Source: Herpetosiphon gulosus
Lineage (GTDB): Bacteria; Chloroflexota; Chloroflexia; Chloroflexales; Herpetosiphonaceae
DNA length: 64,000 bases
Assembly: GCF_039545135.1 (NCBI RefSeq)
Contig: NZ_BAABRU010000004.1
Location: 194,427 to 258,426, forward strand
Direction of reading: 5' to 3'
The translations under genes and the position numbers were made by a program. Below the pieces are notes generated by a model. It had not been told where the DNA came from and did no database searches. It was given only the letters and a program-made list of their open reading frames with translations. Of this stretch, positions 29,678 through 64,000 are shown in pieces. The stretch's first letter is position 1. Each line of letters starts with the position of its first letter.

Positions 29678-29687
29678 TATGCTGCTC

Positions 29688-33584: not shown

Positions 33585-33609
33585 AGCAATCCTCCGAAAA
33601 CTTGTTGGA

Positions 33610-46161: not shown

Positions 46162-46860
46162 TTATGTGCGCATATGGTTGTTCTGAATTGTTCTTATGCC
46201 CACCCGAATGGATTCACTTAGCATAACTGGTACATTCAGTCCAAACTGTGCTGCACGCAGATGCAAATCATGCAACAACCGACACGCCCGTTCAGCGTCC
46301 ATATGAACGATCTCTTCCCACTGCGCTTGGGTTGGATAGATATCCCAGATGCGTGGTTGAGGCAGGGTTGCTGGATCATGCTGCGTTATGACGACATGGG
46401 CGGCATGATAGGCCACAATACTTCTAAGTGTGGCAATCTCTGCCATAGCGAAACCGTGCCGATAGACACGCAAATACAACTGATGAATAAGGCTATGGGC
46501 GAGCTGCGGCTGAGATACGAGAAGCTGCATCCACTGCGAGCCATCAGGAACGCCATCATGGGGCAACATATTGGATGGAAAGTTCGGGTTGTCACCCATC
46601 TTGCTGGAGAGCTGCTGCGCCTCCGCTTCAATGTGCTCAAGTGTAAAAAACTGGGGAGCTGGAGTCGGCGGCAGGCCTGACCGTGATGATCGTCGCCACC
46701 AAATAAGCAGGATGGTACCGATACTCCCAATCGCCATCCATATGAGTTCCCATGCCATGAATGGTTCCTCCTTGTCATGTCTCAGGTAAAACAGCAATGA
46801 TGCGCTCCAGCACCAAGGCAGGGTTACGTCACCATACGCCCATTGTACATAACTCGCCAC
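46162..46860 (-). CDS. Hypothetical protein (N-terminal TM), tRNA-proximal
   Basis: ORF only. A likely internal start is MAWELIWMAIGSIGTILLIWW. No domain recognised. Confidence 0.35.
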   Translation of the reverse strand: MASYVQWAYGDVTLPWCWSASLLFYLRHDKEEPFMAWELIWMAIGSIGTILLIWWRRSSRSGLPPTPAPQFFTLEHIEAEAQQLSSKMGDNPNFPSNMLPHDGVPDGSQWMQLLVSQPQLAHSLIHQLYLRVYRHGFAMAEIATLRSIVAYHAAHVVITQHDPATLPQPRIWDIYPTQAQWEEIVHMDAERACRLLHDLHLRAAQFGLNVPVMLSESIRVGIRTIQNNHMRT

Positions 46861-46997
46861 AACGATGTAGCTCGGTGGTCGAGTCCCTACGATTCGACCA
46901 CCGAGCTGTCTACTCTGTCCCTAGAGGGTTCTGTGATCCAAGTTAACGTATTATCCACATTTTTGACAAAGCATACCCATACCTTAGATGAAATTAT

Positions 46998-47231
46998 GTG
47001 GCGAAGAAAATTCAAGTCACAGATTTGTCCAAGCGAACAAATATCTCTCAATCTCGAATATCGGCTATCAAAAATAACCCCTATATCAACCGCACAAGCG
47101 ATACAATTGCTCGTTTTTGTGAGGCTTTAGGGATCTCGCTGGCCGATTTTGGCGAGTTAGTTTACCTTGAAGATTCAGCGGAAAATTCAGAATCTAAAAT
47201 AGAACTGGCCCAACTTCAGCAGACTAACTAG
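46998..47231 (+). CDS. XRE-family (Cro/C1-type) HTH transcriptional regulator, GTG start
   Basis: VTDLSKRTNISQSRISAIKNN...TIARFCEALGISLADF helix-turn-helix pattern. Confidence 0.55.
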   Translation: MAKKIQVTDLSKRTNISQSRISAIKNNPYINRTSDTIARFCEALGISLADFGELVYLEDSAENSESKIELAQLQQTN

Positions 47232-47254
47232 TGTCTGATAGTTGGGCCAGTTCT
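47201..47254 (+). terminator. Perfect 15-bp inverted repeat (AGAACTGGCCCAACT / AGTTGGGCCAGTTCT) spanning the stop codon of the XRE gene; terminator-like hairpin without a T-run
   Basis: Arms read directly. The loop is 24 nt and contains the TAG stop. Confidence 0.35.
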
Positions 47255-47553
47255 ATTGCGATATACGCTTTGTGTTTGGCGACCGTCAGCTATATCGCGA
47301 GTGGAGTATCCTCTGTAAACTAACGCACCTTACCAATTGAATCGATAAAGGGGACAAGATTCTTGGCATGCTGAGATCGCTGTAGGAATGGTAGCCATTC
47401 ATGCGACCGCTGCCAGTTGTTCAGATCAGGAATACGGTGGTTACCCCTGATGATGTATTGATACCAAGCGACTGTGTTTGACGCAGTGCTTTTATTTTTT
47501 GTGCTTAATGGACAAACGCCCACATGATTACTCAGATGGACGCTTGTTGGTTG

Positions 47554-47629
47554 TGGCTCCCTGACTAGGACTCGAACCTAGGACATGCTGATTAACAGTC
47601 AACCGCTCTACCAACTGAGCTATCAGGGA
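47554..47629 (-). tRNA. tRNA-Asn (anticodon GTT), CCA encoded
   Basis: Reverse complement folds as a cloverleaf: acceptor TCCCTGA/TCAGGGA, D-arm GCTC-AGTTGGTA-GAGC, anticodon loop CTGTTAA, T-arm CTAGG-TTCGAGT-CCTAG, discriminator G, then CCA. Confidence 0.85.
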
Positions 47630-47650
47630 TTATGCATTTGTAAAAAGAAG

Positions 47651-47695
47651 TGGCTCCCTGACTAGGACTCGAACCTAGGACCCATTGATTAACAG
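47651..47695 (-). repeat. 45-nt duplicate of the tRNA-Asn 3' end (from anticodon loop to CCA, 2-4 mismatches in the variable loop): candidate att site of the integrated element
   Basis: TGGCTCCCTGACTAGGACTCGAACCTAGGAC..TGATTAACAG matches 47554-47598 of the intact tRNA. It lacks the 5' half, so it is not a second gene. Confidence 0.6.
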
Positions 47696-48624
47696 GTTCG
47701 CCTAAAATGCGAAGCAAGCACCCTGTTTCAACAGGCTGCTTTGAAGGAGGTTTGGTATTTGTTTGCTCGCCAGCAACACCACATTGCTGCAATGCACTGT
47801 CGCCCTAACCAGCATTTTCTTAGAGATCGTTAACGTTCTGCTGGAGTAGGATATGGTACGCTGAAGCCTAACTTGACTCGACACATTCGAGCTTACCAAC
47901 AGGACTATTGATAACGGGTGCTTTAGTACATCAATAGTCTTCCCATTGGCTCTAGCATGCGCTCGTTGCTAGAAACCCAATAACAGGTGGTTGATGCTAT
48001 GACACGCCACCTGCTGGATAAGCAGGACAGATGCTATGACACGCTGCTTATCACCACGCTTCATGGGAATTCAGGATCATTGAATCCATGGAGCTTTACC
48101 ATAGGTCGTCTGGGAGTCCTGCTCACCGACTTCTTTATTTACGAACGCCGCTTGCGGCCTTCATAATTCAATGCGCTCCGGCTTTAACCAATTCATAAAA
48201 GATGGCCGTTCGGAGATTGACGGCCATCGCTCGCCATCGACACAATGCAAGGTTACGATGGTTGAGTTTGATATACCCATGACCTTGACTCAGTGTGTTT
48301 CCTGTCTTCCTCACACCTATTGGTGAATGACGGTTGGCTTTGTGTTGCCGCCAATTTGGAACGGTAACCCTCGCCACAGCCCTTTGCCAGTACCAAACGT
48401 GTAGGTTGCTTTGCTATACCCAAAAAATGGCGACCGCCATTGCTGGTTGTGCAAGCACCCCTTAACGCGGTGTGTCTGAAGACCTGTCATGAGATACCCC
48501 TTTAGCACCACCTGCGGGGGTATCCCATCACATACTCTTTCCGCTCCGCGCGGCCTCGAGTCGAGTATCTGCGAACGCACACGCTATCCCAGTGGGATAC
48601 CGCGATAGATCGAGGTCATGATTA

Positions 48625-49488
48625 ATGATTACGCAATGGATCGAAGAATATTTGTCCGCCAAAATCGCCGAACGCCGCAGCCCTGCTACCATCACTACCT
48701 ACCGTATCCGGTTAGGACGGTTTGGTGCTTGGGTCGTTGAACAACCCAATCAGGTGCTCACTCGTGCGTTATTGCGGGCCTACAGTGCGTACTTAGCCCA
48801 ACAAAACATCAGCATTGCCAGTCACTATAGTTATCTCAACGATGCCCTCGTCCTCGTGCGCTGGCTTGCTGAAGAAGGTTATATTCAACCCATTAAGACC
48901 GATAAACTCAAACCCCGATTACCCAAGCGCTTGCCTGCCCACTACACGATGGATCAAATTAAGCGCCTCCTGCTGGTTGCCGAGCTTCGTGAAAAAGCCA
49001 TGCTCTGTGTCTTACTGGATACCGGCGTTCGGGTCAGTGAACTGATTCAACTCCGCCGGACTAGCTTTGACTCGGAAGGCTGCGCCATGATTCTTGGCAA
49101 AGGCAGCAAGGATCGGTATATCTGGATTTCATCCGTGACCCAAGAAGTCCTTCGAACCTACATCGCCAGTCGGACGGATACGAACCCTGCGCTGTTTGTC
49201 AGCCATCGCCAGCAAAAAACGCTGACGATTAGCGGCGTACACCAGAGCTTCGATCGCTTAGCCTCCGACGCGGAGATCCGCAACGATGTGCGGCGTTTGA
49301 TTCACTCCTTTCGTGCCACCTTCGCCCGCGAACTGATCAAGAAAGGCCTTGATGCAGAAAGTCTACGGGTGTTGATGGGCCATGAAACGATTCAAATGTC
49401 TCTGCACTATGCACAACTCTCATCCCATGAGGCGACCCAAAATCGGCAAGGCGTGAACCTCCTCGAGAAGGTGGAGTCATGCTTATAA
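48625..49488 (+). CDS. Tyrosine recombinase/integrase (XerC/D-like)
   Basis: N-terminal SAM-like domain. Catalytic-domain motifs DTGVRVSEL (R), KGSKDR (K), HSFRATFA (HxxR), LMGHETIQMSLHYAQLS (catalytic Y). Confidence 0.85.
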   Translation: MITQWIEEYLSAKIAERRSPATITTYRIRLGRFGAWVVEQPNQVLTRALLRAYSAYLAQQNISIASHYSYLNDALVLVRWLAEEGYIQPIKTDKLKPRLPKRLPAHYTMDQIKRLLLVAELREKAMLCVLLDTGVRVSELIQLRRTSFDSEGCAMILGKGSKDRYIWISSVTQEVLRTYIASRTDTNPALFVSHRQQKTLTISGVHQSFDRLASDAEIRNDVRRLIHSFRATFARELIKKGLDAESLRVLMGHETIQMSLHYAQLSSHEATQNRQGVNLLEKVESCL

Positions 49489-49497
49489 GCCTCCAGT

Positions 49498-50151
49498 ATG
49501 CCCACCTATCCCGGTAGAAACAAGGGAAAAAGTGTACAGAAAGTCAGCACGTTTTTGACAAAAAACGTGCTGATAGGGGGATCTATGCCCATCGATGTTG
49601 GAATTGGTTTGGCCATGGCCACGATGCTGTATGCCGTGGTGCTTGAACGCTACAAGCACTATTTGGAGCCAGATTGGACGTGGATTGAAGTGGTTGTCGG
49701 AACCCTGCTGTGCGTGACTGCCGCAGGGATCGCCATCCGCCTTACGCCGAACGCCAGCTGGCCCCAGTATGAGCACCAGATCATCGCCAGCTTTGGCATT
49801 GGTGGTGGGGTCATTATTACGTGGCAAGTCTGGCGCATGATCAAACGTCGCCAACAAACCCGTGCGGTTGTCTTTGACCTCGTAAATGGCGACCACCAAG
49901 AAAGGGATGTGGATGCCACGGCGACGACTCCGTTGGCCGAACGTGGTGAACGAACATCGACTCGAAGCGCTAGCGAACGCCGCGCAATCGTCGAAGCAAG
50001 CTATCCGAGCCAAAGAGTTGCTCAACCAAGTGGTGCATCAGCGCTATCACTTGAACAATCCCGAAGCCGTCGAACTTATCCTGACCAAGATCGCCCTGCT
50101 GCTCGCAGAGATCGAGGCCAATCAGGAACGAATTCAGCGCCTCTTGATTGA
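49498..50151 (+). CDS. Hypothetical membrane protein (frame uncertain; overlaps alternative ORF 49886-50188)
   Basis: The first third has two hydrophobic helices (GIGLAMATMLYAVVL, VVGTLLCVTAAGIAI). The rest is Arg/Ser-rich. The alternative frame 49886-50188 encodes a helical 100-aa protein and could be an Xis-like factor. I cannot resolve the two from sequence alone. Confidence 0.3.
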   Translation: MPTYPGRNKGKSVQKVSTFLTKNVLIGGSMPIDVGIGLAMATMLYAVVLERYKHYLEPDWTWIEVVVGTLLCVTAAGIAIRLTPNASWPQYEHQIIASFGIGGGVIITWQVWRMIKRRQQTRAVVFDLVNGDHQERDVDATATTPLAERGERTSTRSASERRAIVEASYPSQRVAQPSGASALSLEQSRSRRTYPDQDRPAARRDRGQSGTNSAPLD

Positions 50152-50304
50152 TGCAGCCCACGGCGAAGAGAAAACGCCCGAGTCGTAAAACCCAGTTGCC
50201 CCAATGGCCATGTGCGATTGGGGCAGCATCCTCATTCCTTGCCCTTCGATAGAGATAGTAGTGTGCTGTGGTGAGTATCCTCCCGCAGCACCGAGGATAG
50301 ATCA

Positions 50305-51900
50305 ATGACGACACCGTTATATGCGCAGGTGCGCACTGCTATTCAGCAGTTGCTGGCAGGCCAGACCCTTGACCTGACCCGTGATTGGGGCGAATGGCTA
50401 TCGATGATCCAAAGTTTAGTCTATGCCTTTGAACAGGGCGGCTCGGCTGCCGTCCAAACCGCACTGGAAACCGCGATGCGGGTTGATAGTCGCGTTGCGG
50501 CGCTGGTGGTTGACCCTGCACCACCCACAGCCTTGCGCACCATGCCACCCTTACCGAGTGAATTGAGCAAAGCCATCCGGCAGCACGGCGCATGTGGCCA
50601 CTGGCTCGATACCTATATCGGCTATGCCAGTTATGCCAGTCCGGTCACGCCCGCGATTTTTCATGAAGCGGCAGGCCTCTTTTTGGCGGCGACCGCGATC
50701 GCGCGGCGGCTGTATCTGCAAATTGGCGAAACCTACTACTACCCCAATGTCTATGCGCTATTTGTGGCTCCTCCTGGGCGCTATGCCAAATCGACGGCGA
50801 TGAAGGTCGTCGAGCGGGTATTGCGTCGCGCAGGTCTTGGCCATTTGCTACTACCCGACAAAAGCACGCCCCAGTCGCTGCTCCAGCAGTTTTCGACCGT
50901 CATTCCTGACAAACTGGACAGCTACAGTGATTACGACCGTGAGCAATGGCTACTCGCTCGCGCTCAAGCGGCCCAACGGGCATGGTTGCTTGATGAAGCG
51001 GGATTTCTCTTCAGCGATATGAAGAAAGAGTATATGGCCGAGCTGCTCTCGCTCTTACTCAAGCTGTTTGATAATCCCGAATACTTGGCCCACGAAACCA
51101 TCACCCATGGCCGAACAACCATCCGTGATGCCAGTCTTTCATTCCTTGGCGCAACCACACCGAAAAACATCGAGGAGCATCTGCGCAGCGAAAAGCTGTG
51201 GGATGAAGGCTTATGGAGTCGCTTCGCGATTCTGATTCCTGAGCACGACCCGATTTATGCCGAGTTTCCTGATGAACTCACCATGCCCCCGGCGCTGCTC
51301 GATGGCCTGAAACACCTCGATTTGCTGTTTCCGAAGCCCGACGCTGAACTGGTTGATGACGTACCCGAGGAAAATATCAAGCGCTTTGTGCGGATCTATA
51401 ACGAGCATCCCCCCAGCGCTATCCGCCTCGCGCCCGGGGTCATGAGTCTCTGGAAACGCTATGACAAGGCCGTCCGGTTTGACCTGCCCAATAACGGCTT
51501 ACCCGACACGCTGTATGCCAGCTATGCCCGTTTCCCGGGGCATGTGTTGCGGGTGGCCATGATTCTGGCCGCCATGGATTGCCCTGAGTTACCCGTGATG
51601 ATGCAGCTCGATCACCTCAAACGCGCAATCACGATCGTCGAGCGCTGGCGCAGCGACTTGCATCGGATTTGGAGCGATGGGATTCGGAGTGAAGAAACCA
51701 AGCTGGGAGATAAATTGGTCGGCATGCTCAAAGCCTCGCTCTCGGGCTTGACTGTGCGCGATATCTGCCGCCAAACCAACCAATCCAAAAAAGAGATCAC
51801 CGAAGTCCTTGAAGTCTTACGCCTCGCAGGCCAAATTGACGTGCTGGAGACCAAAGCCGCCAACGGTCGGGTGATGCAACTGTGGAGATATAGCGCATGA
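50305..51900 (+). CDS. Hypothetical replication-associated protein (DUF3987-like; family assignment tentative)
   Basis: 531-aa ORF just upstream of the iterons and the primase gene. No Walker A. Family recall is weak. Confidence 0.45.
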   Translation: MTTPLYAQVRTAIQQLLAGQTLDLTRDWGEWLSMIQSLVYAFEQGGSAAVQTALETAMRVDSRVAALVVDPAPPTALRTMPPLPSELSKAIRQHGACGHWLDTYIGYASYASPVTPAIFHEAAGLFLAATAIARRLYLQIGETYYYPNVYALFVAPPGRYAKSTAMKVVERVLRRAGLGHLLLPDKSTPQSLLQQFSTVIPDKLDSYSDYDREQWLLARAQAAQRAWLLDEAGFLFSDMKKEYMAELLSLLLKLFDNPEYLAHETITHGRTTIRDASLSFLGATTPKNIEEHLRSEKLWDEGLWSRFAILIPEHDPIYAEFPDELTMPPALLDGLKHLDLLFPKPDAELVDDVPEENIKRFVRIYNEHPPSAIRLAPGVMSLWKRYDKAVRFDLPNNGLPDTLYASYARFPGHVLRVAMILAAMDCPELPVMMQLDHLKRAITIVERWRSDLHRIWSDGIRSEETKLGDKLVGMLKASLSGLTVRDICRQTNQSKKEITEVLEVLRLAGQIDVLETKAANGRVMQLWRYSA

Positions 51901-52185
51901 GAAGTGTCATAAGTGTCATGAAGTGTCATAAACGGTTTATGACGCTAAAAACCCACTTGGGGAGCCGCTTCCTTGAGAAGTGTCATAGTGTCATAAGGGG
52001 ACATGTCCAATTTAATAAGGAACATGTACGCGAGACCGATGAGACCACACAAAATCAAAAAATAGCATGACACTTCTGACACTATGACACTTCTCCGTTC
52101 TATCCCATTGGAAAGCCCTAAATCGTTGATTTTGGCTGCATGACACTTCTCTGACACTTCATGACACTTCTCGTGGGAGGGTTCA
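51901..52185. promoter_or_regulatory. Iteron field: at least 10 copies of AAGTGTCAT / ATGACACTT in direct and inverted orientation (candidate origin or primase/initiator binding sites)
   Basis: Direct copies at 51901-51930 and 51977-51996. Inverted copies at 52067-52096 and 52141-52172. Read directly from sequence. Confidence 0.55.
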
Positions 52186-53322
52186 ATGATTGAACATCTT
52201 TCGGGCGATGATTTTCTTTCTTTGGTTGGCCAGCGCACCGCCCTGCGCAAAGTGGCCGCAACCAATGGCGGTGAATGGGCGGGAGCATGCCCTTTGTGTG
52301 GAGGGAAGGATCGCTTTCGGGTGCAACCGCATGGGGATCGTGGTGGCCGCTGGTGGTGTCGCAGTTGTCGCGATGGCCAGCCGTGGGCTTCGGATATTGA
52401 TTTTGTCTTTCTACGCGATCACGGCTTTATCCCCAGTACCGATCATCCAGAGTGGCCTGCGTTGATCAAAGAGGCTTTTGCCACACTGGGGTTGACGATC
52501 GAGCAATCACGACCATCGACGAAGGTCGTCCCTGACCCTGAGCCACCGAATGATTGTGAGCCACCCGCTGCGCTTTGGCAACAAGCCGCCCTGAGTTTTC
52601 TTGGCTACGCGGTTGATATGTTGTGGAAGGATGGGGATAGCCAGCCCTCGCCACGCACCTACTTACACCAGCGTGGCCTGACCGATCATACGCTCCGCGC
52701 TGCCGCGATTGGCTACAACCCCAAACCGCTCTACCGTCCGCTGCACAAGTGGGGACTGACAGACCCGAAGAAAGATGGCGTGTGGTTGCCTGCGGGCTAT
52801 GTGATCCCATGGTTTTGTGATGGGCAGCTCTGGAAGCTCTCGATTCGCCAAACGACCCCGCGCGACGAGGGCATGAAATACGTGACGATTGCTGGCAGCA
52901 GCAATGTGCCCTATGGCATTGATACCTTCCGCGCAGGCCGCCCGGGTATTCTGGTGGAAGGGCCGATTGATGCGTTGGTGGCCCAACAAGCACTTGGCCA
53001 ATTCGAACGCCATGGGCAACCACTCAGCGGGGTTGCGGCGATTGGCACAACCCAAGGGCGCGGCTTTCGTTGGCTCGTCCAATACAGCCTCTGTCAGCCG
53101 CTCTTCATTGCCACCGATGCCGATCAGGCAGGCGATAAGGCCGCTGCCTATTGGCTCGATATCTTCAAAGGCAAAGAGGTTGCCCGCATGCGGCCCGACC
53201 CGCACGATTTTGGCACGATGGCGGTGCAGTGTGGCATGGATTTACGGTCGTGGATTGCCACCCATCTTGATCGCTGGTGGACGGGCGACCTCGCCCCTAG
53301 CCCGATTCAATCAGTTGCCTAA
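52186..53322 (+). CDS. DNA primase, zinc-finger + Toprim type (DnaG-like, element-encoded)
   Basis: CPLCGGKDRFRV...WWCRSC zinc-binding motif. Toprim Glu in ILVEGPIDAL and DxD in FIATDADQAGDKAA. Confidence 0.7.
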   Translation: MIEHLSGDDFLSLVGQRTALRKVAATNGGEWAGACPLCGGKDRFRVQPHGDRGGRWWCRSCRDGQPWASDIDFVFLRDHGFIPSTDHPEWPALIKEAFATLGLTIEQSRPSTKVVPDPEPPNDCEPPAALWQQAALSFLGYAVDMLWKDGDSQPSPRTYLHQRGLTDHTLRAAAIGYNPKPLYRPLHKWGLTDPKKDGVWLPAGYVIPWFCDGQLWKLSIRQTTPRDEGMKYVTIAGSSNVPYGIDTFRAGRPGILVEGPIDALVAQQALGQFERHGQPLSGVAAIGTTQGRGFRWLVQYSLCQPLFIATDADQAGDKAAAYWLDIFKGKEVARMRPDPHDFGTMAVQCGMDLRSWIATHLDRWWTGDLAPSPIQSVA

Positions 53323-53394
53323 GACCTGAATGTTTTCTCCTGATATTTAGCGGCGATGGGTGGGTGTATCCCATCCATCGCCGAGGAGCCTGTT

Positions 53395-54384
53395 ATGACC
53401 ACTCTCGTCCATGGGGCCAATATTGGCCATGGCTATGTCAAATATACGATCAATGCTGGTGATCACGAAGAAACAATTATTTTCCCAGCGCTGGTGGCTC
53501 CCGCCAGTAGCACCGATGGCAATCTGCACGATGTGCCCACCGTGGACGTTCACGGCACACTCTGGTGGACAGGTGATGATGCCCTGTTGCACCCCGCGCC
53601 CTTATCACTCCGCTCGCAACAACGGCTCTACGATCGCCACATTATCCCTGCGCTGGTCAAAGGAGCGTTACAGCGCCTCAAGCAGCCCTGTGGTGGCGCA
53701 TGTGTGACTGGACTCCCTGCGGCCTGGTCCGGCGAACGGGATTTAGCGGTGGCCTTGGGGTCGCGGCTGCGAGATGCGGTTGCAACCCAGTACTATCACG
53801 GCACAACCCTGAAAACGGGCATCCGCGTGATTAGTGAACCGCTTGGCGCGTTGTATGGCGTGTTGCTCGACCCCAGTGGGGCGATTACCACTAGTGGCTA
53901 TGAGATGAGTCGGGTTGGGGTGATTGACTTGGGCCACAACACCGTGGATGCCTGCATTGTCCAAGCGATGAATGTGGTGCCCGAAAGTGCGATTAGCTTC
54001 GAGTTGGGTAGCGCCAGTCCGCTCCAGCAGCTCCAGACCAAGATTAGCGGGCGCTACAACCTTGATCTGACTTTACACGAAGTTGATCACGCGGTGCGGG
54101 CAGGCTATGTACGGGTCGCGGGTGAGGAATGCGATCTGCCAACCGGATGGGATCGCCCATGGCTGGCCAATGGCCAACAGGTCGCGGATGCGCTTGTGCG
54201 AGCGTGGGGCAGCGGCGCGAAACTGGCGGCGATTATTGTGGCGGGTGGTGGTGCAGAAATGCCCATGCTGGTTCAAGCGATTCACCAGCGTTTCCGCCAA
54301 ACGATCGTTGCACCCAACCCACAAACGGCGATCGCCCGTGGCTATGCCCGCCGTGCGCGGCGCTACGAGGAGTTTGGCCAATGA
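53395..54384 (+). CDS. Actin-like ATPase (ParM/StbA family) segregation protein
   Basis: Phosphate-1-like VHGANIGHGYVK and phosphate-2-like GVIDLGHNTVDA motifs. RBS GAGGAG upstream of the ATG at 53395. Confidence 0.55.
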   Translation: MTTLVHGANIGHGYVKYTINAGDHEETIIFPALVAPASSTDGNLHDVPTVDVHGTLWWTGDDALLHPAPLSLRSQQRLYDRHIIPALVKGALQRLKQPCGGACVTGLPAAWSGERDLAVALGSRLRDAVATQYYHGTTLKTGIRVISEPLGALYGVLLDPSGAITTSGYEMSRVGVIDLGHNTVDACIVQAMNVVPESAISFELGSASPLQQLQTKISGRYNLDLTLHEVDHAVRAGYVRVAGEECDLPTGWDRPWLANGQQVADALVRAWGSGAKLAAIIVAGGGAEMPMLVQAIHQRFRQTIVAPNPQTAIARGYARRARRYEEFGQ

Positions 54385-54773
54385 GTTTTGATGAACGCCT
54401 GACGACGCGCAGCTCCGGCGTGCTGAGCGCGATGATTGCCAGTCTCGGCAATGAATCCGCCGTACTTCGCGCCCTTGTGATTATTGGCTTGCACACCTGT
54501 GGCAAAAACATCCAGCTATTCACTGCCGATGCCTTGGCCAGCGTCGCCCGCCTTGATGATCACGCCGTGCGGGACACTTTGCTGGCGGTGCTGATGAAAC
54601 CTGTTGAACAAGCGTTGCACCCACGTTCCCCCAGCGTTGAACCCGTGTTACACGCCAGTACACCATCTGTTGAACACACGTTGCACACCAGTACACCACC
54701 TGTTGAACAAATCCCAGTTCCGCCGCCCACGACGCTCGATCTTCCGCCTGATCCCGAGTACCAAGATGTGTAA
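54381..54773 (+). CDS. Hypothetical protein, translationally coupled to the ParM-like gene (ATGA overlap); possible ParR-like adaptor
   Basis: Start ATG overlaps the upstream stop. Pro/Thr-rich C-terminal tail with repeated PSVE(P/H)xLH. Confidence 0.35.
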   Translation: MSFDERLTTRSSGVLSAMIASLGNESAVLRALVIIGLHTCGKNIQLFTADALASVARLDDHAVRDTLLAVLMKPVEQALHPRSPSVEPVLHASTPSVEHTLHTSTPPVEQIPVPPPTTLDLPPDPEYQDV

Positions 54774-55644
54774 ATGAAAGGGAACTGCTATGACTTCACC
54801 TTCAGCCGTGCTGGCTCGGATTGAAACAATCACGCGTGTTTTGCAGGACGTGGTTCAAGGATTACAGGGAAAGCCCTTCCACTGGGGCGGAGGGCAACGC
54901 GAACACTGGATGCCCTTACTGGCAACCATGGGCTTCCATTTGATCACGAAAACCCAAATCGCCAAACAAGGCTATCGCTTAAAACGGGGGGCGCAGCCTG
55001 TGGGCACAGTCTACTACGACGCACCCTTGCAACGCTATGCCGATGTCTATCTCCGTGAATGCCAGTGTGTCGCGCTTACTGATTCCGCATCGGCAGATGA
55101 TTCGGCGCTTGACCAACAAAAAACCGCCGATGAATAAGCATCGGCGGCGTGCATCACCGGAGAACACCAAAGTGATGCAGCGCTAGTATACCAAAGGAGA
55201 ACACCATGACAACATCGGATGTGTTATTTGATCTGCACCGCCTTGATCCTAGCCGCAAACTCATCAAAGGCCTCGCCTGCACGCTCGGCTGGGGCAATAG
55301 CATTGTTACCACCGTCTCGACCCTGAGCGATTTTCAGCATTGGCTGTGGGGAATTCGTGATTATCGCGGCATCCTCGCGGGGCTGGGGGTCGCGCTGTTT
55401 CTCTTCCTTGGCCAACTCTATACCTTGCGCCGGACTGCGTGGGGCTATGGCTGTTTTCTGGCTCCCGATGCCATGATTACGGCCTATAAATGGTGTGAAT
55501 GGTTGTTTTACCCCATCGCCTACAAACTGGCTTCCGGCCTGCCAGCGCTGGCCCTCGCGTGGGGTGCAGGCTTGGCGCTCGGGGTTGTCTCAGCGCGGTG
55601 GCCCGAATATCTGGCCTTTGGCCGCACTGTACAGGAGCATCCGC

Positions 55645-56757
55645 ATGGATATTAATTCGCCGTGGCTCTATCCGTTGATTTTTCTGTTTGCCTGTAGTTT
55701 TGTTGGCACGTTTCTGTGGTGGCATGCACGCACCCCTACCAGCGAACGCCGCCATGCCGCTGCGCCTACCGCACCCGTGCGTGCGACAAATCCGGCACGG
55801 CCAGTCGTGGTGGAGCGTCCGCGTGGTGAAACCTCACCGGAACCCACGACCACCAGTTTATCAACCTATTCATGGCCCATGCTGCTCGACACCTTGGCCA
55901 AGCGCCCGCATATTGGGATTGCTGGCCCCTCGCGCCAAGGCAAGTCGGTACTGAGTATGGCCCTGACCTATCTTCGCGCCGTCGATGGTCACCAGCTGGT
56001 GATTCTCAACTCACATGCGCGACCGAATGATTACGGCGGCTTGCCACAAATCTATGACTATCCGGCGATCAACCGCGTGATGAAAGCGTTGCTGGCTGAG
56101 CTAGGGCGACGCAAGGCCGCTGCGGCCACAGGCGTGAATCATTTTGATCCGATTACGGTGGTGTTGGAAGAAGCGCCTGATGTCATGAGCAAGGTGCATG
56201 GCGAAGATGGCTCAGCCGCCAAACCTAAAGTGCCTGTTGCGCAGCGCTTTGTGGGCGAAATGCTCCGCCAAGCCGCCAAGTATCGCATGCATCTGATCCT
56301 TGTGACCCAAACCACCTTAGTCAAACCACTGGGCATTGAAGGCGATAGCGAAGCACTCGATAACTTGCTCTGGATTGCGATTGGCGATCGGGCCTTGGAG
56401 AAAATGAAGTCGCCCCTCGTTGCCCCATGGCCTGCGGCGATTGAGTGGAATTGTCAATGGTTTTGGTGCAATCGCGAACCGGCGTGGATGTTATCGACCC
56501 GCCCGATTGACCCAGCACGCCTGTGGCGAGTTCCCGATTCCATGGGAGATCCCGCAGGTGATTCCCCGCTTGGAACCATGGGAACTAGCGATGAGAGCCT
56601 GATTGATGAGGCCACGTTGACCGATGTCATCCTGATTACCAAGCTCATCCTTGCTGGCAAAAGTGGCAACGAAATTATTGACAGCTTGGGTGGCAAACGC
56701 ACGCGCCGTCTCAGCCAAATTCGCCATGTCAAGCAGGTGCTTGATCTTGGCGCTTAA
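55645..56757 (+). CDS. Membrane-anchored P-loop ATPase, FtsK/SpoIIIE/TraB-like (candidate DNA-transfer protein)
   Basis: N-terminal TM (WLYPLIFLFACSFVGTFLWW), Walker A GIAGPSRQGKS, and a hydrophobic Walker-B-like HLILVTQT. RBS AGGAG upstream of the ATG at 55645. Confidence 0.5.
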   Translation: MDINSPWLYPLIFLFACSFVGTFLWWHARTPTSERRHAAAPTAPVRATNPARPVVVERPRGETSPEPTTTSLSTYSWPMLLDTLAKRPHIGIAGPSRQGKSVLSMALTYLRAVDGHQLVILNSHARPNDYGGLPQIYDYPAINRVMKALLAELGRRKAAAATGVNHFDPITVVLEEAPDVMSKVHGEDGSAAKPKVPVAQRFVGEMLRQAAKYRMHLILVTQTTLVKPLGIEGDSEALDNLLWIAIGDRALEKMKSPLVAPWPAAIEWNCQWFWCNREPAWMLSTRPIDPARLWRVPDSMGDPAGDSPLGTMGTSDESLIDEATLTDVILITKLILAGKSGNEIIDSLGGKRTRRLSQIRHVKQVLDLGA

Positions 56758-57554
56758 TACCGAAAGGAATCATTCTTATGACCACGACACCGATGACCAT
56801 TACCTTGACCGAAACCCTTGATCTGCCGAAACACGGCCAGCATACCGTGCAAATCACCGTGACCCCACCGAGCACCGAGCCGCACGATCTCGCTCCCTTG
56901 CTGCAACAGGCGACCATGACCCTCTTTCAGCAACTGGATGCTGCCCTGATTCGTGTTCAGCAGCCACCGCGCTATCTGTGTGGTGCACTGTGTAGCGTGC
57001 TCGTCTGCCCATTTCTTGGGTTGTATCTGCGTGTTCCCCAAAGCACGCCGCTCGAAACCCTGCTGGCGGAAACGGTGATCGATGCCAAGGGCGATGCTCA
57101 CCAGCTCTGGACGGTCGCACTGATGGCCGTTCCGCCAGCGCTTGTCTTGCCGCATATCCCTGTGCTTATTCATGCTTTTTCGATCCAAGGGGCGAAGTCA
57201 TGGCGGGAATATCGCGGCGAAGGTGATACCCTGCTTGCAGAACGCTTGCATGAGTGGCAACACGCTATTCCTGAACCAGTACGAACCGATGAACACTGGC
57301 TTAGTGGACTTTAATTGAGTATTCGAGGCCGTGGCTGCTACATTAAGCAAGCCACGGCCATTTGGTGATCAGGATGCTTGCGGCATTCTTGCCCATTCAT
57401 ATCGTGTTCAAACCGTGTTCATATCGCGTTCAGATGGTCTACAAATCGCCAAGTAAAAAATAGCGCACTAGAATCGCCTAAATTGGCTATTTGGTCGTGC
57501 CGACATTCTTTAACAGGCTGCACAGCCACCAATTATCGTGTGAGGAGTGATTGA

Positions 57555-58490
57555 ATGACAACCCATACCTCCGTTGGCCTTAATCCCACTGAGCTGCACA
57601 TCCTGCTGCTCGTTGCTCGGCTTGGTCGCTTGCTGTCACGCCACCTGCGCACCGCGTGGGGCCATCCGTTTACCGTGACGATTCAGACCGTCAATCGCAC
57701 GTTGGCCAAGCTGGTTGATGCCAAGCTGCTGATCTATTGCGAACACTTTCAATCGCATGGCTATGATCCGCGTGGTGCGATCGGGTGGACACGCCATGGC
57801 CGCTTATATAGTCTCACGCCCCTTGGCTGGGAGATCGTCAAACAGGCCTTTCCCATGCTGGAGGAAGGCAGTGAGCGGCTGGCTCCCACGATGTTTAATC
57901 CCCAACATCAAGCCGAACACCAAATTGAGTATGCCGAGTTCATCACCAGCTTGATTCAGTCGCTACCGTATGTGCCTGGTATTGTCGGCATGAGTAGTTA
58001 TATTGAGATGGACTTAGGCCCAACCGCACGGCCACGCGCTGATGGCATTGTTGTGGTGCGGCGCTGGGCCGATGCGACGCAGCCCGATTCTGAGCGCTCG
58101 TCGTTGTATCCATGGCTTGGGATTGGCCAACAGCAAGGGCAAATTGATCAACTGTATGCGATTGAAATCGATCGGGGAACCGAGGAGTTGAGTATTATTA
58201 CGGGGAAAGCCCATTCGTATGGGGAATTATATCGATCGAAGTATTGGGAAGGGCGCTATAGCTGGCCTTTAATTGCCTTTACCGTGCCGAGCGAACGCCG
58301 CAAACGGGCCGTGCTTGATGCGTGGGAAATCGGCTGGCCCGGCAGCCAGCTGCTCATTGCGACCATCGACGATGTGCGTGAGTCGGGTATTCTCACGCCG
58401 ATATGGACGACCCAGTACACCAAGCAAGGCCAACGGATTCAGCAATCGCATCGGTTTTTGCGAGCTGCTTGGTTTGAAAAGGTTATATGA
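57555..58490 (+). CDS. Hypothetical wHTH protein (possibly replication-relaxation family)
   Basis: N-terminal segment LHILLLVARLGRLLSRHLRTAW...VNRTLAKLVDAKLL resembles a winged helix. Family assignment is weak. Confidence 0.35.
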   Translation: MTTHTSVGLNPTELHILLLVARLGRLLSRHLRTAWGHPFTVTIQTVNRTLAKLVDAKLLIYCEHFQSHGYDPRGAIGWTRHGRLYSLTPLGWEIVKQAFPMLEEGSERLAPTMFNPQHQAEHQIEYAEFITSLIQSLPYVPGIVGMSSYIEMDLGPTARPRADGIVVVRRWADATQPDSERSSLYPWLGIGQQQGQIDQLYAIEIDRGTEELSIITGKAHSYGELYRSKYWEGRYSWPLIAFTVPSERRKRAVLDAWEIGWPGSQLLIATIDDVRESGILTPIWTTQYTKQGQRIQQSHRFLRAAWFEKVI

Positions 58491-58519
58491 TTCAATAATC
58501 ATTTAAAATAAATTACATT

Positions 58520-59521
58520 TCATAAATATTCATCTATATCTATAATTATATTTTTATTTTTCTTCATATATAATTTGAATTCATCAATAAAATTTTCAGT
58601 GGCAAAAATAAGAGTTAATATATCGTTTTTATTTATTTCTATATCAATGAATGCCTCGTGAACTATTTTATGTCTTATTGTTATATATTTAGCTATTACT
58701 TTTTTGATATTTATTTCTTTTTTATTGAATATTTTGTTTACATTAAGTATTTTCTCTATATCTATCTCAATTTCATTAAATGCGCTTATTATTTTTGGAA
58801 TATTTTGAAATGATGTTAATCTTGCATATTCATCTCCAATTGTTACCTTTTTTGTATACATATTCTTGAAGCTATGTAAATCTAATTTTTTTAATATATT
58901 CTTCTGAATAGACTCTTGGTTATTGACATAAATTACAAAGAAATTTTTTAGAAACTCTTCTATTGAAGATACTATGTAAGGAATGATTAGATTATTTATA
59001 ATAATACCTTTATCAAATCTTAACATCCATGGTAAATTCTCTTTTTTATAATTAAATTCATCAATATCATCTTGAACAGCTATTTTTGATGTAATTATAT
59101 TATTTATGAAATTTCTATAGACTATAGAGCATCCGCGTTCAATAACAGTAAATTCTGGTATTTCATAATAAAGATATGAACACACTCCTTCTTGAGGATT
59201 ATATAGACTTCCTAGAAAAGCTTTTTTTAATTGTTTAATTACATTATTTTGTGCCTCCAGATCTGCAAAAGAACGTCCAGCATTTGAATAGGCATGAAAA
59301 ACTACTTTTGTATCCTTGGGAACATTTTCAACCGGATTATAGTCAATAAATAGCCAACATCCACGGGTAGACTCATAATTATTCTCATTGAACCAGTAAT
59401 AACTTAGACCTTTGTAACCAGAATAATAGGTTGCTTTTTTCCATCCTAATGGAAATATAATTTTTTCAATTTGCCGACGAGTAGGCTGATTTTTAGTTCT
59501 AAGAAATAAATCAATACTCAT
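58520..59521 (-). CDS. AT-rich hypothetical protein (333 aa) with C-terminal Rx4H (HEPN-like) motif
   Basis: About 25% GC. C-terminal ...AKYITIRHKIVHEAF... contains R-x4-H. No other recognised domain. Confidence 0.5.
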   Translation of the reverse strand: MSIDLFLRTKNQPTRRQIEKIIFPLGWKKATYYSGYKGLSYYWFNENNYESTRGCWLFIDYNPVENVPKDTKVVFHAYSNAGRSFADLEAQNNVIKQLKKAFLGSLYNPQEGVCSYLYYEIPEFTVIERGCSIVYRNFINNIITSKIAVQDDIDEFNYKKENLPWMLRFDKGIIINNLIIPYIVSSIEEFLKNFFVIYVNNQESIQKNILKKLDLHSFKNMYTKKVTIGDEYARLTSFQNIPKIISAFNEIEIDIEKILNVNKIFNKKEINIKKVIAKYITIRHKIVHEAFIDIEINKNDILTLIFATENFIDEFKLYMKKNKNIIIDIDEYL

Positions 59522-59600
59522 TACTTGCTCCTAGAATCTGGAATTAATGATTTAGGTTCTTTCTGATAATCCATGCTAGACTATCCGACAGGAGGTACGC

Positions 59601-60135
59601 ATGGCTCTCCATGAATTGACCAATACCCAATTTGCCGTGATTGCACCGATCCTACCGACCGAAACCTGCCGTGGCCGCCCATGGAATGACCACCAATGCG
59701 TGGTTAATGGCCTATTTTGGCAACGCAATACCATGATTCTATGATGCGATATTTCCGACCGCTTTGTACTCTGGTAACACGGCGGAACCTGGGAATGCAT
59801 CCTTACCTCCTTGCATATGTCCTTAAATGCCATGGATGCCTCGAGTGGCAGTAATTGACCATCGATGGCATGCTTATTTGCGTCGGTCGTACCGTTGCGG
59901 CGCATGAAAAAAATCTTTGATGACACATGAATCCACTAACCAAACCCTCGGATGTTTCTACGGCAGATTCGGTACCAAATCCACCTCCTTTAGTTTAGAT
60001 GGTCGTGTACATCCGTTATCCTCCTGTCTTACGCCTAGACAGATCCACGAAGGCACCGCGTTCGAAACCCTGATCGTTATGCTCCAGCAGCACGGACAAC
60101 CCGGCACCCGTCCACACTCATTGGTTGATGATTGA
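59601..60135 (+). pseudogene. Degraded IS5-family (IS427/IS1031-like) transposase remnant, multiple frameshifts/stops
   Basis: MALHELTNTQFAVIAPILPTETCRGRPWNDHQCVVNGLFWQ matches the conserved N-terminus of IS5-family transposases (L..EQW..IEPLLP...GRPR.D.R.VLNGI). Downstream fragments lie in other frames. Confidence 0.6.
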
Positions 60136-60791
60136 GGCGATGATGACCGTTGTATCAGACAGTGGACTCAGCAATATGGGATTCGGTCGGTGATTCTGCC
60201 ACGCCGACGACGCGGTGAATGCAAGGCTGTCCGTCCAGTTTCTATGGCTAACAGGCTTGCCATGCCCGCACTGTGGTTGAGCCCGCCAATGGCGGGCGCA
60301 AGGAGTGTCGGTTGGTTGAGAAGAGAAACTGGCTCTGAATTATCTTGTATTGATGCATCTAGCCATGATTCAACGATTGGTTCGTATCATTGTACCGTTC
60401 ATATAGCCATCCTGAATTATAAGGCCTACGGTAATATGCTATTAAAGTAAAGGTGCTGTTTTTGATCATTTTCGTGGTATTCTGAATCTTTCCAATGGAA
60501 GCTTAAGGAATTAAATTATCAAACAAAATATATTCTCCAGCCTCTTCCTACTGTCAATGTGTTGTGATTAACTGGAGTCAGTGTGCCTTTAGAATCCATT
60601 ACTGCCAATACATCCCATGATATCCAAACGTATCTGGATACAAGATCACTATCAAAATGAGGATAACAGTACTTATCAGAACTTACTTTATACGTTTTAA
60701 TTTAACTATTTAACTAGTTGGCTTGACATACCTGATAGGATATAGCAACTAGAATTACACCTTAATCTTATAAAAACATCATAACATTTCT

Positions 60792-62846
60792 ATGCACTTG
60801 AAGGAGTTACCTATGATCTCAGATGTAGAGAAAAAACGTTCTATTTTACTTACGACAAAACTAAGGTTTTCTCCAGAAATTCAACCTTTAAAACAGACTG
60901 TTATTAATAATATTATTTTACAAATAATTTATACAAATTCATCATTAAATAGGTGGAGGATAGAAACTATTAATGAAAAAATCTATTCTCAGATTGGACA
61001 TCAGATTAATAATGATGATTTAAACTTATCTTTAAAAAGTCTTATTTCTCAAGAAATGATTGAGGAACTAAATAATGGAGGGCATAAAACATATAAACTA
61101 TCTGATATAGGAAAAAAGTTAATAGATAAGCATCAAATTGAGGCAGAGAATAGGTTGGATAGGGTTCTACATGAACTTTTTTCGAATTCAGAAATACACT
61201 CATCTTTATATACCGATCCTTTCCTTGATGTTATATCAAGAATATTTTCAAAAATAGGTGAAGATAATGCTCGTTTAATAAAAGGAGATTTATCTAATGA
61301 AGATTTATTGAATTATATATCATTACCAGATATAATAAAGGGGGTAGTTTTTAAATCTTCAAATATTAATTATGCTGTATTTGAATCTGGAATAAATAAT
61401 TTTTTTAGAAAAAATGACCCTGATTTTGATATTATTAAATGGAATATGGCTCAGAATTATTATATAACAAAATCTTTAGGAATTGATCCTTCTGGATCAA
61501 TCCTTTCTAAAGAATTATATGAAAATGCTGTTTTCTATCTTGATACTAATATAATTATTACAGCATTAGAAGAAAATCACGAGTATCATCATAGTTTTTT
61601 ATTTTTTATTGAAATGTGTAGTAAATTGAATATATCAATCAATATTTGTCAAATATCACTAGATGAAATGAATGAATGGTTATCATATCAGAGAGAGATA
61701 ATAGAAAAAACTATAAGCAATATACCTGATGGACTGTCAAGTAAAATCAATTCACTGATATATGATATATATCTTAAGAAAGTAGAATTACATAATTATG
61801 AAAATATAGATGATTTATTTACTAGTTTTTCTAATGCATCAAATAAGTTAGAGTCTGAATTTGAAATAAAATTATTTCATAATGATTGGTTTTCTAATAA
61901 TAATGATAAACCGGAAGTGAATAATTTTGCTGAAAAGATTAGAGATAGATATTTTAAAACTCGTAATAGAAAAAAATCTCGTAGAGCACCAAAACATGAT
62001 GCTTTATTATTAATGTGGATAGAAAAAGAACGGAGAGAAAAATCTTTAAACACATGGCTAATTACAGCTGATTCTTCTTTACCAGGTATAGTACCTAATA
62101 GATCAATAGATTCTTCTTTAGCTATTACTATGGATGCAATTATCCAATGGATATCTCCTGTAAATATTTCCAATGAAGATGAATTTAGTTCTATATTCTC
62201 AGAAATGATAAAATTAAGACTATTTCCTCAGAATAAAATATTTATGCTAGAAGATTTTCTTATTTTTCATGAAATGAATATTTCATGCAAAGAGTTACCT
62301 ATTGAAGATGTAGAACAATGCATTAGATATATTAAGAGGAATATTCCAAATATGGATATATCTAAATCATCTGATAGAGAAAGATTACACTATGAGATGA
62401 GTAGATTTTTTAAAGATCCAAGTCGAAAATATCAAGAAGAGTTATCAAAGCTCGAAAGAGAGAAATCAGAAATGAGTATGAATTTTGAAAGAGAGAAATC
62501 AGAAATGAGTATGAATTTTGAAAGAGAGAAATTAGAAATAAATAATTCTATTTCTGATTTTAGAGAAAAACTATCTAATATGGAAAGTGAAATAAATATA
62601 AATAAAATAAAAAGTATAGTAAATAAAAAAATGTTCAGAAGTGTGTTGCTACTTTTTATAGTAATTTCTATAACAGTCTACATTGCCGAAGGAAACACCT
62701 TCTACGAAAAGATTAGTGGGTGGTGGCAAGTGTATACTTTTATCTTTGGAGTATGGATTTTTCTTGTTTCTATTTGGATAGGGAAAGAAGGACTTAGAAC
62801 GCTTGGATGGCCATTTACCAAAATTTTTGGAATAGAAGATAAATAA
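60792..62846 (+). CDS. AT-rich large hypothetical protein (684 aa) with PIN-like motif and C-terminal double TM; candidate defense/abortive-infection cargo
   Basis: About 24% GC. NAVFYLDTNIIITALEE resembles a PIN/DUF4935 first strand. Tandem EREKSEMSMNF repeats. C-terminal hydrophobic helices (VLLLFIVISITVYIA, VYTFIFGVWIFLVSIWIG). Confidence 0.55.
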   Translation: MHLKELPMISDVEKKRSILLTTKLRFSPEIQPLKQTVINNIILQIIYTNSSLNRWRIETINEKIYSQIGHQINNDDLNLSLKSLISQEMIEELNNGGHKTYKLSDIGKKLIDKHQIEAENRLDRVLHELFSNSEIHSSLYTDPFLDVISRIFSKIGEDNARLIKGDLSNEDLLNYISLPDIIKGVVFKSSNINYAVFESGINNFFRKNDPDFDIIKWNMAQNYYITKSLGIDPSGSILSKELYENAVFYLDTNIIITALEENHEYHHSFLFFIEMCSKLNISINICQISLDEMNEWLSYQREIIEKTISNIPDGLSSKINSLIYDIYLKKVELHNYENIDDLFTSFSNASNKLESEFEIKLFHNDWFSNNNDKPEVNNFAEKIRDRYFKTRNRKKSRRAPKHDALLLMWIEKERREKSLNTWLITADSSLPGIVPNRSIDSSLAITMDAIIQWISPVNISNEDEFSSIFSEMIKLRLFPQNKIFMLEDFLIFHEMNISCKELPIEDVEQCIRYIKRNIPNMDISKSSDRERLHYEMSRFFKDPSRKYQEELSKLEREKSEMSMNFEREKSEMSMNFEREKLEINNSISDFREKLSNMESEININKIKSIVNKKMFRSVLLLFIVISITVYIAEGNTFYEKISGWWQVYTFIFGVWIFLVSIWIGKEGLRTLGWPFTKIFGIEDK
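62454..62540 (+). repeat. Two and a half tandem 33-nt repeats (GAAAGAGAGAAATCAGAAATGAGTATGAATTTT) within the AT-rich gene
   Basis: Exact duplicate units at 62454 and 62487, with a diverged third copy. Confidence 0.8.
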
Positions 62847-63975: not shown

Positions 63976-64000
63976 GACGACTTCCTCCGGCTCCGCGCCG

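Follow-up and report, generated by a model that had tools for sequence, protein, structure and literature searches.

The run of genes between 48.6 and 58.5 kb in a 64,000-nucleotide stretch of the Herpetosiphon gulosus genome (contig NZ_BAABRU010000004.1, positions 194,427 to 258,426; hereafter the window) is very probably the early arm of a temperate, siphovirus-like Herpetosiphon prophage, inserted in the first of two tandem tRNA-Asn genes and carrying the functions of integration, replication and maintenance. All genes of the run are co-oriented on the + strand. The integrase gene stands beside an att repeat built of tRNA-Asn sequence; the early arm points at a convergent structural and lysis arm, of which the window holds just the last gene; and both arms occur together in relatives that have another integrase and another tRNA site. 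As a type of object a temperate tailed prophage is ordinary, and IMG/VR already has a provirus entry for the homologous region of Herpetosiphon aurantiacus DSM 785.

A preliminary description of the window had read the same genes as a module of the actinomycete integrative and conjugative element (AICE) type. It listed an integrase, a DUF3987-like protein, an iteron field, a zinc-finger/Toprim primase, a ParM-like actin ATPase with a coupled small partner, a membrane FtsK/TraB-like ATPase and a winged helix-turn-helix protein. All of these were found, in one orientation (+), where it had placed them or nearby, and with scores far above chance. It is the classification of the element that had to be changed.

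Results

The integrase gene adjoins an att repeat derived from tRNA-Asn

The attR-type repeat occupies positions 47495-47695 (- strand) and consists of a 59-nt flank, a whole tRNA-Asn gene (47554-47629, minus strand, as called by ARAGORN), a 20-nt spacer and a duplicate, 46 nt in length, of a tRNA-Asn 3' half (47650-47695; 91% identity), which stops at the anticodon loop. We considered the possibility that this 46-nt fragment was a chance repeat. This was rejected, as the fragment belongs to a 200-bp repeat that is present at both ends of the corresponding island in DSM 785. That island is about 42 kb long (42.1 kb) and is bounded by 200-bp direct repeats with 96.5% identity; at its far end, two tandem tRNA-Asn genes lie beside the repeat, the 200-bp block being made up of 45 nt from the 3' end of the first tRNA, the spacer, the second tRNA in full and the 59-nt flank. 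In blastn comparisons, the homology between the window and DSM 785 began precisely at 47495, the outer edge of the 200-bp block. Further att copies were found neither elsewhere in the window nor between the two arms.

The tyrosine integrase (287 aa; 48625-49488, +) matched PF00589 with an E-value of 7e-25, has SAM-like N-terminal domains and shares 98% protein identity with its DSM 785 counterpart. The PF00589 match, the tRNA-Asn duplicate and the DSM 785 repeats together identify a tRNA-targeting recombinase with att repeats. No gene was called, in the window or in the relatives, in the 930 bp that separate the att repeat from the integrase gene (47696-48624), and we infer that this gap is an attP arm or a regulatory region.

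The 1.47 kb lying just outside attR (46020-47495) had no counterpart at this position in DSM 785. This segment resembled instead the attL-proximal inside of the DSM 785 island, with 82-86% DNA identity near att, and an HTH_3-like open reading frame (ORF) within it (46998-47231) showed 43% protein identity to the attL-proximal interior of that island. The segment is probably a diverged remnant of a second, related element that was formerly integrated in tandem.

Relatives carry the early arm together with a tailed-phage structural arm

Loci in H. aurantiacus DSM 785, H. llansteffanensis and H. geysericola showed 84-94% identity to the window. The syntenic relatives were four in total; terminase, portal and capsid genes were scored in DSM 785, and tail genes were seen in other relatives (L011, L012 and L016). 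In DSM 785, the early module converges on minus-strand genes for proteins of 588, 455 and about 1125 aa, the last in the tape-measure position. Proceeding outward, these are followed by genes for a tail tube protein (PF18906, 3e-05), a neck protein (phrog_5, 6e-12) and an adaptor (phrog_442), then by a major head protein (phrog_267, 1e-78), a scaffold and an SPP1-type portal (PF05133, 3e-23), then by a large terminase (phrog_2, 4.5e-23) with an HTH_7 protein in the small-terminase position, and then by an Amidase_2 endolysin (PF01510, 1e-23) with small genes upstream of it. Next in this order comes a gene for a 521-aa tail-fibre-like protein, homologues of which bear collagen repeats. Terminase, portal, capsid, tail and lysis genes were thus all present in one att-bounded unit at the syntenic DSM 785 locus, and the IMG/VR provirus UViG_2508501111_000002 (34.3 kb) comprises everything from the integrase through the structural arm as one unit. 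Replication genes belonging to the structural arm itself were not found in DSM 785. No homologues were retrieved with the 376 C-terminal residues of the tape-measure-like protein as the query.

The window enters this structural arm at its right end. The 3' half of the last gene of the tail module lies at 63070-64000 (-) and runs off the window; its product measures 588 aa in the relatives. The 903 bases from 63098 to 64000 aligned with the 3' half of the 588-aa tail gene in DSM 785 (L002 16768-17670) with 91% identity. The span given in the preliminary description, which has no att copy at its right end, is not a complete element, and the element runs beyond base 64000.

The association of the two arms was also observed at another chromosomal site. 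In GCA_020161265.1 and in a 33-kb contig from a sequencing run, the segment from DUF3987 to Replic_Relax adjoins the genes for the 588-, 455- and 1124-aa tail proteins beside a tRNA-Phe gene, and the integrase of the tRNA-Phe relative is an unrelated one (25% identity) encoded on the opposite strand. These tRNA-Phe relatives, with their 25%-identical integrase, indicate that the early and structural arms form a single mobile unit.

Distant relatives of the membrane ATPase also have phage genes as neighbours. In locus L014, the gene for the membrane ATPase (48% identity) faces a Phage_capsid_4 gene. In L021, a distant phage-like contig, the ATPase gene (26% identity) faces an SPP1_Dit gene and a gene for a 1053-aa tape-measure-like protein.

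At the end of the DSM 785 island far from the early arm (L023 3571-11566; CP000875.1 738267-746262), we observed cI/Cro-like HTH_3/HTH_26 genes, a methyltransferase gene and a second tyrosine integrase gene. The latter lies directly upstream of the low-GC tail-fibre-like gene and of an opposite-strand gene for a Calx-beta/CBM protein. This second integrase region could be a separate small element, or the recombinase could be tied to the fibre region.

An inverted iteron field separates a putative initiator from a primase

The DUF3987 protein (50305-51900, +; PF13148, 5e-22) has a C-terminal winged-helix domain and matched the C-terminal part of PHROG 'DNA primase' families (2e-20). The gene for the 378-aa Zn-ribbon/Toprim primase (52186-53322, +) follows; this protein matched PF08273 (4e-07), PF13155 (4e-07) and the PHROG 'DNA primase' family phrog_47 (3e-19). 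Between the two genes lies the iteron field (51903-52168), whose left side has five forward copies of AGTGTCAT and whose right side has six reverse ones (GTGTCAT/GTGTCAG). Of the 10 exact AGTGTCAT copies that the 64-kb window contains, 9 were in the iteron field (5 forward on the left, 4 reverse on the right), where two extra GTGTCAG variants were also present on the right side. The chance expectation was 1.3 copies, and none of 100 shuffled sequences reached 10. The two iteron sets flank a conserved central block, GGGGACATGTCCAATTTAATA, which is followed by an A-rich stretch, and this arrangement, including the central GGGGACATGTCCAATTTAATA, was conserved across the relatives.

The iteron copies have switched in concert, being GTGTCAT in the window, GTGTCAC in DSM 785 and GTCAC in the tRNA-Phe relative GCA_020161265.1. 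Furthermore, 10 of the 22 differences between the DUF3987 proteins of the window and DSM 785 fell within residues 451-500, around the winged helix-turn-helix. Since the iterons changed together and the changes in the protein cluster at the winged helix, these data fit a role of the DUF3987 protein as an iteron-binding initiator and helicase; such a joint change in sequence is suggestive of this role rather than proof of it. We propose that the iteron field is the replication origin.

Two direct copies of GATGCTATGACACGC, each containing the iteron core TATGACAC, are present at 47996-48044, in the gap between the att repeat and the integrase gene. The shared core may link origin binding to the control of integration.

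A ParM-to-Replic_Relax block forms a probable maintenance unit distinct from the replication unit

Downstream of the primase gene, a 329-aa ParM-like actin ATPase is encoded at 53395-54384 (+). Its ALP_N and MreB-like_C domains and its matches to phrog_691 ('partition protein', 4e-24), PRTRC_D (2e-17) and NF010498 (3e-11) identify it as an actin-like ATPase of the ParMRC (type II) kind. The ATG of the next gene (130 aa; 54381-54773, +) overlaps the ParM stop codon as ATGA, in agreement with the coupling that had been noted initially. The 130-aa product is a candidate ParR-like adaptor, though it gave no ribbon-helix-helix, helix-turn-helix (HTH) or other family match in Pfam or PHROG. The sole repeat cluster near the ParM pair was the iteron field, 1.2 kb upstream. 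Within the gene of the ParM partner (54601-54708), three 33-nt tandem repeats encode P-V-E-(Q/P/H)-x-L-H before an acidic C-terminus.

At the other end of the block lies the gene for the Replic_Relax protein (311 aa; 57555-58490, +), which corresponds to the winged helix-turn-helix protein of the preliminary description. It combines a winged helix with a PD-(D/E)XK-type domain and matched PF13814 (9e-09) with 36.1 bits against a curated cut-off of 25.3; MarR_2 was matched at residues 8-62 (8e-04). Replic_Relax is a family of the PD-(D/E)XK fold, mostly fused to an HTH (PMC3424549). No sequence relative of the window protein was found in the PDB.

The distant locus L021 was informative in this respect. 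It has in common with the window the actin-like protein (ALP; 46% identity), the adaptor (32% over 72 aa), the membrane protein, the ATPase (26%) and Replic_Relax (25%, 1e-12), and its adaptor of the 130-aa type follows the ALP in the same position as in the window. Its initiator, by contrast, is an HTH_36 protein and not DUF3987 plus primase. As L021 keeps the ParM-to-Replic_Relax block with a different initiator, this block would therefore be a co-inherited maintenance unit distinct from the replication unit.

The membrane ATPase belongs to a large, unnamed family

The central members of the block are a polytopic membrane protein of 149 aa (55206-55655, +), with two hydrophobic segments above the hydropathy threshold, and a membrane-anchored P-loop ATPase of 370 aa (55645-56757, +), the end of the former gene overlapping the start of the latter by 11 nt. 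In each of the five phage or metagenome contexts that were examined (L016, L021, L014, L020 and L019), the gene directly upstream of that for the ATPase encodes a homologue of the 149-aa protein (hidden Markov model (HMM) E-values of 6e-44 to 4e-61). The nature of the ATPase as initially described was borne out by its family profile, its fold and its similarity to pIJ101 Tra. Its start was not: the ORF given was too long, and gene calls in relatives place the start at 55645.

The ATPase alone gave no match in Pfam (including PF01580) or PHROG and no meaningful match in NCBIfam, and a word-based search returned just five homologues, every one of them from Herpetosiphon or another member of the Chloroflexi. 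When 1.84 billion representatives were searched with a profile, 876 cluster representatives were retrieved at E<=0.001. In a 96-member alignment, G99, K100 and E176 were invariant, and 57 of the 96 members matched PF01580 (FtsK_SpoIIIE) weakly, the best at 2.4e-07. Compared with the PDB, the family profile matched EccC (1.2e-15) and FtsK (1.5e-14), and also TcpA and TrwB. The AlphaFold model made with this alignment (mean predicted confidence score, pLDDT, of 86.8) comprises an N-terminal membrane helix (residues 8-29), a linker, a RecA-like motor and a C-terminal three-helix, HTH-like domain (residues 325-369). When the model was submitted to Foldseek, TcpA of pCW3 and the FtsK motor ranked first (6o1x, 1.3e-06; 6t8g and 2ius, about 5e-06), and the matches to TcpA, FtsK and EccC ranged from 1e-06 to 1e-04; sequence identity to TcpA and FtsK was 16-20% and the TM-scores were about 0.4. 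The protein thus has a Walker A/B RecA-like motor with an FtsK-type fold. The window ATPase did not reach the curated PF01580 threshold; even so, the family profile and the model make 'membrane FtsK/TraB-like ATPase' a fair label.

We also considered the possibility that the ATPase was a terminase or another packaging enzyme. This was rejected because a separate large terminase is encoded in the relative and because the fold is that of FtsK/TcpA and not that of a terminase.

Phage proteins of similar size and fold were found in BFVD (best 8e-16). A scan of IMG/VR with a 6-sequence alignment of the ATPase recovered only the DSM 785 provirus, and a tblastn search of phage records with a distant family member had a single match, the FtsK/SpoIIIE gene of a Bacillus phage (7e-06). 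Five family queries against 72,556 plasmids gave matches only in Nostoc, Tolypothrix, Calothrix, Moorena, Allocoleopsis, Annamia, Pseudanabaena and Streptomyces. All these genera are filamentous, and several of the plasmids are just 5.6-9.5 kb in size, for example pCC7120zeta. The family as a whole has no curated model and is unnamed and uncharacterised.

The member on pCC7120zeta, from Nostoc PCC 7120 (L027 2945-4126), had an HMM E-value of 1e-61. A gene of this family makes up about one-fifth of such tiny plasmids of filamentous cyanobacteria, including NC_008440.1 (6.4 kb, Nostoc sp. PCC 7524), and its product bears no annotation beyond that of a hypothetical or ATP-binding protein.

Weighing of the prophage assignment and its alternatives

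Several points weigh against the assignment to a prophage. The structural genes are attributed to this strain through synteny with DSM 785 and the 903-bp overlap, and the 588-, 455- and about 1125-aa tail proteins have no family match in PHROG or Pfam. A tblastn search of 50,697 GenBank phage records with the window ATPase and the Replic_Relax protein yielded no match. The need of an integrated prophage for ParM is not obvious, so that the maintenance role is a presumed one. The first 6.4 kb of the DSM 785 island contain a second integrase and a cI/Cro-like pair, and may be a separate small (tandem) element or a part of the phage. Finally, the iteron field could be a centromere or an operator instead of an origin.

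Among other readings, we considered that of a phage-conjugative hybrid, a real tailed prophage in which the ATPase and its membrane partner would act as a Tra/TraB-like hexameric pump that, guided by the C-terminal HTH, moves double-stranded phage or plasmid DNA across septa to neighbouring cells of the filament in a virion-free manner. The ATPase family profile aligned collinearly with pIJ101 Tra (55 bits), with the motor and the C-terminal HTH in the same order, and the 325-369 domain aligned with the HTH end of pIJ101 Tra, its DNA recognition being predicted. The top match among solved structures, TcpA, is a conjugation coupling protein, and some members of the family bear the NCBI name 'type IV secretory system conjugative DNA transfer family protein'. 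The plasmid matches were confined to filamentous cyanobacteria and Streptomyces (among the 72,556 plasmids, several of the matching ones being 5.6-9.5 kb), and Herpetosiphon is likewise filamentous (PMC12157898). Yet transfer activity is a prediction; no Spd-like genes were recognised; and a search for clt-like repeats near the ATPase gene gave only the iteron field and the coding repeat. The filamentous-host pattern comes from about nine genera and may reflect phylogeny, not cell form. The tight linkage to ParM, found in two divergent lineages, suits segregation equally well, and a role of the ATPase in segregation or in septum clearing is therefore at least as likely as one in movement between cells. 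We regard the hybrid as rather unlikely, and likewise a role of the ATPase in TraB-like cell-to-cell DNA movement, to which the plasmid hosts and the collinearity with pIJ101 Tra point. It is similarly improbable that the ATPase and its membrane partner form a compact TraB-type pump for double-stranded DNA with which the excised, ParM-segregated prophage would pass along the filament without virions. In that case, plasmids and temperate phages of multicellular, filamentous bacteria (Herpetosiphon, heterocystous and oscillatorian cyanobacteria, and Streptomyces) would be the carriers of the pump family.

Another reading would be that of a defective or domesticated prophage, held at a fixed locus with its module out of use in the phage cycle. 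The insertion site (EamA, then tRNA-Asn) is indeed identical in the window and in DSM 785, the outer side of attR in the window is bordered by a remnant of a related element, and PHAST has reported a 16.2-kb 'incomplete prophage' in H. llansteffanense (PMC6210107), which may correspond to this locus. However, the ORFs of the early arm are all intact, with 94-100% protein identity to DSM 785; the element shows 93-94% DNA identity between strains, against 86% for the flanking EamA region; one relative has relocated to tRNA-Phe with a new integrase; and the morphogenesis and lysis sets of DSM 785 are complete. Domestication thus appears quite improbable.

Least probable is an independent AICE- or ICE-like element (with integration, replication, partition and transfer genes) merely lying beside an unrelated prophage: the integrase next to a tRNA-derived att, the replication module and the membrane-anchored FtsK/TraB-like ATPase speak for it, as do the opposite transcription of the two arms and the variable DNA between them, but no att copy lies between the arms or elsewhere in the window, the arms are linked also where both the tRNA and the integrase differ, replication genes are missing from the structural arm, the ATPase adjoins phage structural genes in three divergent lineages, the Rep protein is not RepSA, RepAM or Prim-Pol, Spd, Kor and Pif genes are lacking, and IMG/VR treats the whole stretch as a single provirus. 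The AICE/ICE class of the preliminary description was abandoned because a tailed-phage structural arm adjoins the module in the four syntenic relatives; capsid, portal and terminase genes lie in DSM 785 at the locus syntenic to the DNA beyond the window, a finding which, by that description's own terms, speaks for a prophage. The gene order was also compared with that of AICEs, and the correspondence failed for Rep type, size, absence of virion genes and accessory functions.

Variable cargo and small genes of the early arm

Between the two arms of the prophage lies a low-GC (25-40%) cargo island (58477-63098), delimited on the GC profile. It encodes a HEPN (RiboL-PSP) protein (58520-59521, -; PF18735, 1.4e-06) and a 684-aa protein (60792-62846, +), the gene of which has a 33-nt tandem repeat at 62454-62552. 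Other cargo occupies the same spot elsewhere: PDC-M32-like genes in DSM 785, and genes for a Schlafen/AlbA_2 protein and a fusion of a methyltransferase with Mrr in GCA_020161265.1. PADLOC had no match to the cargo proteins of the window, and the cargo genes of DSM 785 had none in PHROG or Pfam. The arm junction is a hotspot of variable cargo, probably of a defensive nature, and the island itself looks like a defence or moron hotspot. Low GC (37-45%, against a background of about 51%) was also observed at window positions 11001-13000 and 27001-35000, which suggests other horizontally acquired islands.

The remaining genes of the early arm encode small proteins. A predicted membrane protein of 188 aa (49585-50151, +), delimited by gene calls in relatives and overlapped by an alternative frame of 91-100 aa, had no family match in Pfam, PHROG or NCBIfam. 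The same three collections gave no match for the 115-aa ORF (54790-55137, +) or for a 178-aa protein (56778-57314, +) that is 98% identical to its DSM 785 counterpart. Two differences in gene content from DSM 785 were observed in this part of the arm. The window DNA from 54772 to 55121, which holds most of the 115-aa ORF, is without counterpart at this position in DSM 785 (blastn gap, L002), and at 57314-57555 the window lacks a low-GC gene for a 329-aa multi-pass membrane protein, which in DSM 785 lies between the 178-aa gene and Replic_Relax. A scan for consensus promoters and terminators did no better than with shuffled sequence.

Discussion

Comparison with known systems

The closest described arrangement is that of Bacillus phages with modules of the plasmid-prophage type. 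Genes for ParM with a small adaptor, Replic_Relax and FtsK/SpoIIIE proteins occur in Bacillus phages, and ParM has been documented in plasmid prophages (PMC9658697, PMC7685451, PMC10454425, PMC8026635). Like the Herpetosiphon prophage, vB_BtS_B83, IEBH, Izhevsk, Kirov and Novomoskovsk/Bolokhovo are tailed (siphovirus or myovirus) and encode tyrosine recombinases, Replic_Relax and a ParM-like protein whose gene is directly followed by that of a small adaptor; some of these phages also carry an FtsK/SpoIIIE protein, as is the case here. They are thought to be maintained as plasmids, whereas a tRNA gene is the integration site of the present prophage, with clear att repeats. Its host differs too, being a filament-forming member of the Chloroflexi, and its ATPase has an N-terminal membrane helix and a conserved membrane partner. 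FtsK-like genes are also common in Streptomyces phages (bioRxiv 10.1101/2024.02.16.580700, PMC11536984).

AICEs are defined by Int, a Rep protein of the RepSA, RepAM or Prim-Pol type and an FtsK-domain Tra protein; they are small, are bounded by att sites and also encode Spd, Kor and Pif functions (PMC2440964, PMC3218068). The present element resembles pSAM2, SLP1 and pMEA300 in its tRNA-targeting integrase, its genes for autonomous replication and its single FtsK-type ATPase, which in AICEs has a DNA-binding C-terminus. The differences concern size and content, AICEs measuring 9-24 kb and being devoid of virion genes whereas the att-bounded island here is about 42 kb (in DSM 785) with a full head, tail and lysis set; replication, which here involves DUF3987 and a Toprim primase instead of RepSA, RepAM or Prim-Pol; and ParM, which is present here and is not needed by AICEs. 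Among the arm proteins, no match to Spd, GntR-type Kor or Nudix Pif was found in Pfam, NCBIfam or PHROG.

The ATPase shares with pIJ101 Tra and with TraB of pSVH1 and pSG5 the succession of an FtsK-like motor and a C-terminal HTH, predicted in the window protein. It is shorter (370 aa, against 620-770 aa for Streptomyces Tra/TraB) and has a single N-terminal membrane helix in place of the long N-terminal region of the Streptomyces proteins, and its neighbouring gene encodes a small polytopic membrane protein, where Streptomyces plasmids have spd genes. TcpA, for its part, acts in a multi-protein transfer apparatus, which is absent here.

With regard to replication, P4-like phages and staphylococcal pathogenicity islands also have a primase and a helicase/initiator encoded beside an origin made of two iteron sets around a meltable spacer, and the sequence of their iterons co-varies with the C-terminal domain of the initiator. 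The present element differs from these in that the DUF3987 protein, the putative initiator, is encoded apart from the Zn-ribbon/Toprim primase and in that the iteron sets are inverted, the binding itself being predicted from the sequence.

A possible sequence of events

The following scheme could account for the gene content of the prophage. After excision or infection, the genome would circularise, and the C-terminal winged helix of the DUF3987 protein would bind the inverted iteron sets and open the conserved central region between them, allowing the Zn-ribbon/Toprim primase to initiate theta-type replication. A co-inherited maintenance block of the plasmid type, made up of the ParM-like actin, the small adaptor, the small membrane protein, the membrane FtsK/TraB-like translocase and Replic_Relax, would then retain extrachromosomal copies in long filamentous cells. 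ParM would drive the copies apart, and the membrane-anchored translocase, steered by its C-terminal HTH, may clear phage DNA from closing septa or move it across them.

Significance

Phages of Chloroflexi are almost undescribed, and the initial statement that such a combination of genes is poorly described for this lineage stands. The present analysis corrects a tempting misreading, in that the presence of an integrase, replication and partition genes and an FtsK-like ATPase does not identify an AICE if a head, tail and lysis arm adjoins them. The putative origin offers a clean case of joint change between iterons and the winged helix of a putative initiator. The ATPase and its membrane partner define a large family through which phages and small plasmids from filamentous bacteria are connected with the Tra/TraB pumps of Streptomyces. 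If it were true that this pump moves phage DNA between the cells of a filament, the line between lysogeny and conjugation would be blurred, and a tailed phage would have a second, conjugation-like route of spread.

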